The notes beneath the pieces were generated by a model. The model was given only the letters and a program-made list of their open reading frames with translations. It was not told the DNA's origin and did not search any database. 64,000 bases of DNA from Octopus vulgaris (taxonomy: Eukaryota), in the NCBI GenBank assembly GCA_951406725.2, contig OX597832.1, positions 7,068,001 through 7,132,000 of the forward strand, given 5' to 3'. A program made the position numbers and the translations under genes. The first letter of the stretch is position 1; every line of letters begins with the position of its first letter. This document shows positions 21,890 through 22,950 of the stretch, piece by piece.

Positions 21890-22950
21890 TTGTTTATAGG
21901 GAGAAAGATATTGAAAAATCATCAATACTTCAGACTAACAGAGAAACTACGAAGGTATCAGGTAGTCGCGAGGTGTACCAAAAATAAAATTTAAATAGCC
22001 TTCAAATGAAACATAAAAAAATTTTCGGTTTCGGTTTTTGCATAATCGTATGAATTTCCGTGCGTTGAGCACAATTCGGAAAATGTTTCTGTAAATTCCC
22101 CAAAATAATAATAATAAAAGGTATGAGGAATTATATGAGGTGCTTAAACCAGAATTTCGCCTCAAAGACTAGCCACGGAGACACGCGCTTTCACAGATTA
22201 TTTTATACTGTTAATAGATTTTGGCGCTATTTAGTTTATAAGGTTATGTTTAACTGAAAGCACGAAAGGGGAATTCCATTTGTAAAATTGAAAGCACGAG
22301 AGGGGAATTCCATTTGTAAAATTGAAAGCACGAGAGGGGAATTCCATTTGTAAAAGAACACGCAAGAGGGGAATTCCACTCATAAAACTGCAAGTAATTT
22401 TGAAAAGTTGTCTCCCATTCTTCAGTCAAAAATTTTGTTCTTCAATATATAGAATCCAGAATGCCCATAAATTATCTTTACAATTTGAGAAATTAAAACA
22501 CATACGTACACACACACACACACACACACACACACACACACACACACACACACACACACACACACACACACACACACACACACACACACACACACACACA
22601 CAAAAGATTGTGTGCAGCCAATGGAGCCCACATGAAAGTGTTCTGATGTTTCTAATAAAACAAAATTTGCTTGCGTTATCCATTTTTTCCACCCTGAATT
22701 TTTCAAATAGTAAAGATAATTGATGGACACCCTGTCCTTACGAAGTTTAACAAGAGCCTCAAGTATCAAGAGAGTTGATTTCTGTGAGAATAAAATATTA
22801 ATACATTGAATGAACTTCAAAATGGAAAAAGTTCAAGAGAAACTGCATAATACTTTGGCATAAACGAACCAACTATTTGACCAATTAAAAGATAGAAAGA
22901 AAATTCAGTGACACTGTTTTAACTAACTTTAAAACACATATCAGATATGG
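21890..22950 (+). repeat. Segmental-duplication block paralogous to 39620-42090; partial third copy at ~9070-9260
   Basis: Shared strings such as TATGAGGTGCTTAAACCAGAATTTCGCCTCAAAG, CAAAAGATTGTGTGCA and CAATTAAAAGATAGAAAGAAAAT. The 39.6-42.1 kb copy is interrupted by a solo LTR and a MITE. Confidence 0.9.
22252..22395. promoter_or_regulatory. Tandem NF-kB-site / IRF-element-like array 2 (4 units), ~0.85 kb upstream of caspase A ATG
   Basis: GGGGAATTCCA at 22268, 22302, 22336 and 22368; 34-bp unit AAAATTGAAAGCACGAGAGGGGAATTCCATTTGT. Confidence 0.65.

Follow-up and report, generated by a model that had tools for sequence, protein, structure and literature searches.

Three short tandem arrays around a cluster of caspase genes raise a simple question: why should one kB-type core, GGGGAATTCC, be kept in 10 exact copies, each followed by A, amid spacers that have drifted? 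The window, by which we mean the whole 64-kb stretch of DNA analysed here, holds all 10 (Table 1), and a first-pass annotation had read them as a phased, multimerised immune enhancer under purifying selection, in which a kB site is paired with an IRF-like element. The descriptive part of that account was reproduced. Core positions and counts agree, and both of the spacers quoted as examples of divergence are found in the window; core-to-core spacing is 34 and 32 bp in a17, 34, 34 and 32 bp in a22 and 32 and 32 bp in a41, and TRF recovers all three arrays with a period of 32-34; the TGAAAG-type motif ascribed to most units stands, as TGAAAG[CT], 5' of seven of the 10 cores and 3' of one further core. 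The distances also hold, the arrays lying 847 bp upstream of the caspase A ATG (a22), 1724 bp downstream of caspase B (a41) and 2760 bp downstream of caspase A (a17). The helical phasing does not, for 34 bp is 3.24 turns, and of the four internal spacers with an intact motif three have this length, 86 degrees off three turns.

Table 1. Coordinates of the features discussed, in window positions
Feature	Position	Strand	Remarks
Array a17	17691..17823	no strand	cores at 17724, 17758, 17790; 2.76 kb downstream of caspase A
Caspase A	20578..21405	-	one coding exon, 275 aa, Peptidase_C14; SHG and QACRG intact
Upstream segment common to caspases A, B and D	21443..21883	-	abuts MITE-array segment in A
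Truncated old MITE-like dispersed repeat	21887..22165	no strand	742 candidates; inside putative 5' leader
Putative transcription start region	22155..22180	-	contig ends; TATA minus 31 gives 22176 (inferred)
TATAAAA box	22201..22207	-	intact beside a22 only; a41 copy reads TACAAAA
Array a22	22252..22395	no strand	four GGGGAATTCC cores at 22268, 22302, 22336, 22368
Half-sites AANNGAAA in array a22	22252, 22286, 22320		three half-sites
MITE with short terminal inverted repeats and internal AC microsatellite	22450..22740	no strand	dispersed; right of a22
Caspase 3' flank relic	38595..38800	-	coding region not detected; a41 lies about 2.3 kb upstream
Array a41	41075..41184	no strand	cores at 41092, 41124, 41156; last spacer inverted
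Caspase B	42908..43816 (stop-to-stop frame)	-	EASRG replaces QACRG; predicted catalytically dead
Caspase C	57482..58396 (stop-to-stop frame)	-	QACRG kept, SCS replaces SHG; predicted catalytically dead

When one mismatch is allowed, the core has 13 matches in the window against a shuffle mean of 2.06, and none of 100 shuffles reaches 13. The annotation had overlooked a possible decayed fourth core, GGGGCAAATGC, at 17824, exactly 34 bp past the last core of a17. A decayed fourth array at 37858 was also considered and discarded as not significant, its lead being matched by 105 and the array by 709 of 1000 shuffles. In Organism B, three contigs lie over the first unit, consistent with the presence of all three arrays.

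The three caspases in the window are all on the minus strand, have one coding exon each and form part of a five-gene cluster on the contig. The SHG and QACRG residues have a catalytic role in caspases, and of the two cluster members beyond the window caspase D keeps both motifs and caspase E reads EASRG. Three of the five (B, C and E) thus look catalytically dead with their frames open, the locus at 7039216-7040007 on the same contig included, and they are possible decoy or inhibitor pseudocaspases. A caspase paralog on contig C28 reads QTCRG. Among relatives with a solved structure, caspase A is closest to insect caspase-1, caspase-3 and caspase-7, and by this likeness its sequence appears caspase-3/7-like and of effector type. 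None of the other four cluster caspases has an array in its own upstream segment. Mollusc effector caspases have expanded by tandem duplication, according to the available part of PMC11543851, and NF-kB pathway genes and caspases are reported from octopus hemocyte transcriptomes in the available part of PMC4199593.

The repeated unit is not a transposon terminal repeat, because the whole unit is found nowhere outside the window in the 2.8-Gb genome. Pairs of cores 21-25 bp apart match seven times genome-wide, all seven in the window, against none for the control; the left half of the unit, searched with two mismatches, also has seven matches, six in the window and a seventh with both mismatches inside the core; and a DNA search with 22165-22500 returns six, namely the three arrays and three matches to the right-flank repeat only. 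The annotation had suggested a genome-wide count to exclude a transposable element (TE) subterminal repeat, and that count places no whole unit beyond the window. Such a repeat was rejected on the flanks as well: kB sites are absent from all 27 left-flank repeat loci, and the right-flank repeats, among them a MITE that we take to be Tc1/mariner-like, stop short of the array. No array homologue exists at caspases C, D or E or in 190 kb of contig C28; caspase clusters on C5, C7 and C26 were searched as partial sequence and otherwise through the genome-wide patterns. The array is a locus-specific minisatellite with conserved cores. Elsewhere in the window are a Mariner-type transposase frame (Transposase_1) at 63253-63921 and, at 32396-33220, a pair of inverted repeats of 336 bp that are 98.5% identical. 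On contig C28 (2997050-2997400), a closely related caspase paralog is followed 2.3 kb downstream by a CpG-rich 156-bp tandem pair, each copy with GGGAATTTCC and then GAAAGCG, that has no homology to the window arrays.

Part of the unit has a wider distribution. The core together with the right half (22 nt, two mismatches) has 60 genome matches against one for the control, seven of them in the window, and the 20 examined among the 53 outside matches all lie in one Helitron-like element of 430-510 bp. This family is non-autonomous, has subtypes of 430 and 510 bp and numbers at least 1435 candidates (e.g., contig C7:22379850-22380280); its 5' TC, its 3' hairpin with CTAG and its insertion between A and T are what we take to be Helitron hallmarks. 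The element spreads a single perfect kB core, without the IRF-like half and without tandem repetition. The similarity to the arrays covers 20-23 nt at 87-96% identity and ends at the seed, the best flank match being equalled by 30 of 300 shuffles; the chance of such a seed match is about 0.003 per 1e7 consensus positions, a total that we assumed. From these sequences, a Helitron-like element may have been the seed of the array unit. The annotation had regarded hundreds of unlinked TE copies of the unit as fatal to its reading; no whole unit lies outside the window, but a 20-23 nt piece occurs singly in the Helitron-like family, a case that the annotation had not foreseen.

Pooled non-coding divergence between the paralogous segments of the window is 0.163, or 0.239 at G/C sites. 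At 16% flank divergence, 7.3-8.8 changes are expected in three cores across three lineages, and there are none (P 2e-4 to 7e-4); of the events counted by hand, 27 of 27 fall in spacers (P 3e-4). The cores entered these tests by exact match, and the result is P=0.024 when three degenerate spacers are removed and P=0.017 when 17824 is scored as a decayed core. The Helitron-like family supplies a neutral control, in 29 copies selected through a flank (40 were scored and the 30 best taken, one of them the query, which was set aside). Here the same 10-mer shows changes at 22 of 290 sites, 14 of 29 copies have it intact, the kB consensus is still matched in 17 of the 29, and the adjacent unselected flank has changed at 194 of 2900 sites (6.7%). 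Array cores are intact in nine of nine lineages, and the difference from the Helitron copies is significant both by copy (Fisher p=0.005) and by site (0.002). Because the 10-mer decays at flank rate in the Helitron copies, the palindrome is not self-protecting, and shielding from mutation was rejected as an explanation. The purifying selection proposed by the annotation is supported at the kB cores, with no change in nine lineages, but not at the IRF-like GAAAG, where constraint is not significant (P=0.11).

We think it improbable that the arrays are a neutral minisatellite, possibly with a Helitron fragment as its seed, whose match to the kB consensus is fortuitous and which multiplied as the caspase cluster duplicated in tandem. 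Genome-wide, generic kB pairs show no excess over the control (163 against 321), so chance can produce a minisatellite with kB sites, and this lack of enrichment, together with a young array near which no gene was found, is why the neutral reading keeps its weight. The young array, at C4:26380017-26380096, is unlinked and consists of three near-identical 28-bp units in which a GAAA-rich stretch is directly joined to the GGGGAATTCC core; the 105 of 310 candidate ORFs scanned in the surrounding 80 kb revealed no gene within 40 kb, only one retrotransposon RT and otherwise sub-threshold matches. One inverted single copy of its unit lies at C4:26382936, in a 330-bp, 96%-identical inverted duplication. 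Neutrality also gains from the Helitron-like family, which has the core and about 12 similar bases, from the possible decayed core at 17824, and from conservative P values of about 0.02. With the decayed core as a caveat, change is not evenly spread as a neutral minisatellite would have it, the cores being invariant while the 10-mer decays in the Helitron; moreover, the Helitron similarity stops at the 22-nt seed, and a22 is separated from a TATA box by about 45 bp and from the ends of presumed-RNA contigs by about 90 bp.

The 10 units are not independent, having a common origin in one three-core array. That the ancestor had three cores follows from the last spacer, which is degenerate in all three arrays, and the middle unit of a22 would have been doubled afterwards, the cores at 22302 and 22336 being a recent duplicate. 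The odd spacer of a41, before 41156, opens with the reverse complement of the spacer preceding it (13 of 14 nt), and its sequence marks it as apparently one template-switch event and not many substitutions. This inversion, at 41110-41150, surrounds a kB core, and the new spacer ends in TTGCGCAA, presumably a C/EBP-type palindrome. The segment at 21887-22945 is paralogous to 39622-42091, which holds a41, at 14-18% substitutions; for a17, only the 133-bp array itself is homologous to the other two. An upstream stretch of 440 bp is common to caspases A, B and D, and in A alone it abuts the truncated MITE and the array, at 21883/21887. Since a caspase 3' flank relic without coding region lies below a41, this array probably used to stand ahead of a paralog that has since disappeared; between the arrays no caspase coding remnant was found (the best tblastn match had E 1.2, and local alignment scored lower than the shuffle mean), and the 3' intervals of caspases A and B showed no homology beyond short blocks when compared. 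Gene conversion acts in the cluster, as is indicated by some 135 identical bases between caspases A and B (20947-21084 and 43296-43433, approximately) amid 10% divergence, and it would move spacers together with cores. We propose that one unit grew to three cores, that tandem duplication within the caspase cluster would then have multiplied the segment, and that the deletion junction 21887/21883 would have placed the a22 copy ahead of caspase A.

GGGRNNYYCC is the Rel/NF-kB consensus, and all 10 cores match it, as the annotation had claimed. Its expectation that the cognate factors exist is likewise borne out, for the genome has two Rel-homology-domain (RHD) genes and three IRF genes with DNA-contact motifs intact. 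The RHD genes (seven exon matches, contigs C7 and C11) keep RFRYxCEG, as RFRYQCEG and RFRYKCEGPSHGG, and one of them has an SHGG motif and is presumably of p50/Relish type; the IRF genes (six exon matches; contigs C1, C10 and C25) keep FRCALNS in two of three. A probe related to the core, GGGAATTCCC, is bound by a non-vertebrate NF-kB in the available part of PMC8677719.

The IRF side of the proposed pairing is less well preserved. The half-site consensus AANNGAAA, taken from the available text of PMC5861432, occurs seven times in the arrays, at most once per unit, and is separated from the kB site by 7 bp, or by 5 bp in one unit. The likeness to an IRF-E fails, since the full consensus matches at none of 13 spacer positions and only single half-sites are present, with TGAAAG lost from all three last spacers and two of three trailing partial units, i.e., from five of the 13. 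The likeness to IFN-beta architecture fails too: dimeric IRF sites (GAAANNGAAA, full IRF-E) occur at none of the 13 positions, and rigid abutting spacing is absent. By the features tested, the array is outside the IFN-beta enhanceosome class.

These results make it doubtful that kB and IRF sites form an obligate composite, an invertebrate counterpart of the IFN-beta enhancer through which caspase A would answer viral-type signals. Such a composite would explain the seven half-sites and draws on the two IRF genes with FRCALNS, and the C4 array also couples a GAAA-rich stretch to the same core. Moreover, AAAACTGAAAG (17806, 41108) is identical to the PRDIII stretch where, in the available part of PMC3116919, IRF-3 binds a non-consensus AAAA site, and oyster IRFs activate IFN-beta and ISRE reporters in the available part of PMC5557890. 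Yet the half-sites are too often lost and the full element never found, GAAAG shows no significant constraint, spacing varies through indels, the kB-IRF pairing has a single origin and so counts as n=1, and the pair shows no genome-wide excess (34 matches against 46 for the control).

The position of the caspase A promoter was approached through assembled contigs. Among 24 sequencing runs, 16 of them presumed RNA, five of 13 presumed-RNA runs (one per study) and three of eight others were compared. Four of the five presumed-RNA runs (X6, X8, X13 and X15) have one unspliced contig from the caspase A coding region to 22159, 22162, 22155 and 22162, respectively, with no loose end at that point. 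X6, X8 and X13 have no cover over 22174-22425, and the DNA runs X3 and X4 give a contig at 22138-22318. Such contigs show neither strand nor true 5' end, the RNA status of the runs is presumed, and all four contigs stop inside 35 bp that a41 has in common with a22 (22133-22167 / 40958-40992), where DNA contigs also break (22162, 22167). X15 has a contig of depth 2.3 across the first unit, and in X1 a contig joins the caspase A upstream region to an a41-type array and right flank, being either an assembly chimera or a haplotype without the 18.8 kb between the paralogous segments. The contig ends and the TATAAAA box are a weak hint that a22 occupies about -76 to -219 of the putative caspase A RNA start, and the annotation's enhancer upstream of caspase A is accordingly upheld in its distance and only hinted at in its promoter position. 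A putative unspliced leader at 21406-22162 would be 757 nt long and include, besides a fragment of the MITE, 11 upstream ATGs; these would lower translation and sit uneasily with an efficient mRNA. Near 21443 a splice acceptor looked possible by eye, but it had no joint among those listed for the five presumed-RNA runs.

With cores kept amid drifting spacers and one array just upstream of the likely RNA start, the arrays are likely an immune-responsive switch. The reading that we favour, at somewhat better than even confidence from the sequences, is that the cores are Rel/NF-kB sites, that a22 is a four-site cluster in a TATA promoter of caspase A, and that a41 and a17 are nearby enhancer copies. 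An immune signal would free Rel dimers, up to four of which would presumably bind the a22 cores, at about -92, -126, -160 and -192; the TATA promoter would then switch on the caspase-3/7-like gene, which is intact. Input from the IRF-like half-site may contribute and would not be required, and a41, its TATA box eroded and its partner gene probably lost, would now act with a17 as a nearby enhancer.

A functional array could also be read differently. The cores might serve another GGGAA- or GGAA-reading factor, repression by p50-type homodimers, or a different target, for instance a non-coding RNA or caspase B, all of which we judge unlikely. Conservation by itself names no protein, and one RHD gene bears the SHGG motif of the presumed p50/Relish type. 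Both a41 and a17 keep their cores without standing upstream of an intact caspase, a41 even after the probable loss of its partner gene. The a41 region may be transcribed, since 39599-39628 is matched by an X6 contig and an a41-type array is crossed by an X1 contig. However, what is conserved is the full 10-bp kB consensus with both half-sites and not a 5-6 bp core, and the sole intact TATA box faces caspase A. As for the immune enhancer of the annotation, then, the kB cores, the uniqueness of the whole unit and the factor genes support it, while phasing, IRF constraint and IFN-beta architecture have fallen away.

If the favoured reading is right, cephalopods have in this array a natural NF-kB target defined at sequence level, one that links innate immunity directly to transcription of an effector-type caspase, and a compact case of promoter birth through minisatellite expansion and cluster rearrangement. 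A bolder version, to which we give little credence, would have a transposon-seeded kB site and IRF half-site multimerised and captured by deletion as a promoter, bringing an intact executioner caspase under joint Rel/IRF control; were that joint control true, this would be an interferon-enhancer-like death switch in a cephalopod, with one intact caspase among dead paralogs. Because earlier mollusc Rel and IRF assays relied on mammalian reporters, according to the available part of PMC5557890, the native 140-bp element offers a convenient test of Rel/IRF cooperation in molluscs, with four sites, two variants in its paralogous copies and spacers that nature has already mutated. We found no account of this array element in the literature, in a search that lay mostly outside subscription journals.

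Homotypic clusters of kB sites are known from the HIV LTR, the 18-bp repeats of CMV and the MHC class I enhancer A, where an ISRE is added. Like these, the octopus array repeats its kB site no more than about 250 bp from a TATA box, and as in MHC class I a kB site is followed by an ISRE-like stretch on the gene strand; unlike them, it is a natural minisatellite at a mollusc effector-type caspase. The Drosophila diptericin promoter reportedly (Kappler, 1993) has two 17-bp repeats nesting a kB-related site. As far as that account is available, the two systems share an invertebrate gene with short direct repeats, each with a kB site, in the proximal upstream region, whereas the octopus array consists of 3-4 head-to-tail units of 32-34 bp, exists in three paralogous copies and has a caspase as candidate target. 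With the human IFN-beta enhanceosome, as described in the available parts of PMC3116919 and PMC5861432, the array shares an 11-nt identity to PRDIII, placed upstream of an asymmetric kB site of p50/RelA type and in the same order. It departs from that model in having one IRF half-site per unit instead of four, in being multimerised, in often losing the IRF part, and in its 7 bp gap where the human sites abut, its periods of 32 and 34 and its one inverted spacer. The five caspase-3/7-like genes in tandem resemble the mollusc effector caspases of PMC11543851, whose available part concerns proteins and expression, in contrast to the cis-element here, and three of the five genes here are without a catalytic residue. 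Among known systems, the sequence thus likely places the array with the homotypic kB clusters, a well-known class of element, here in a caspase promoter.
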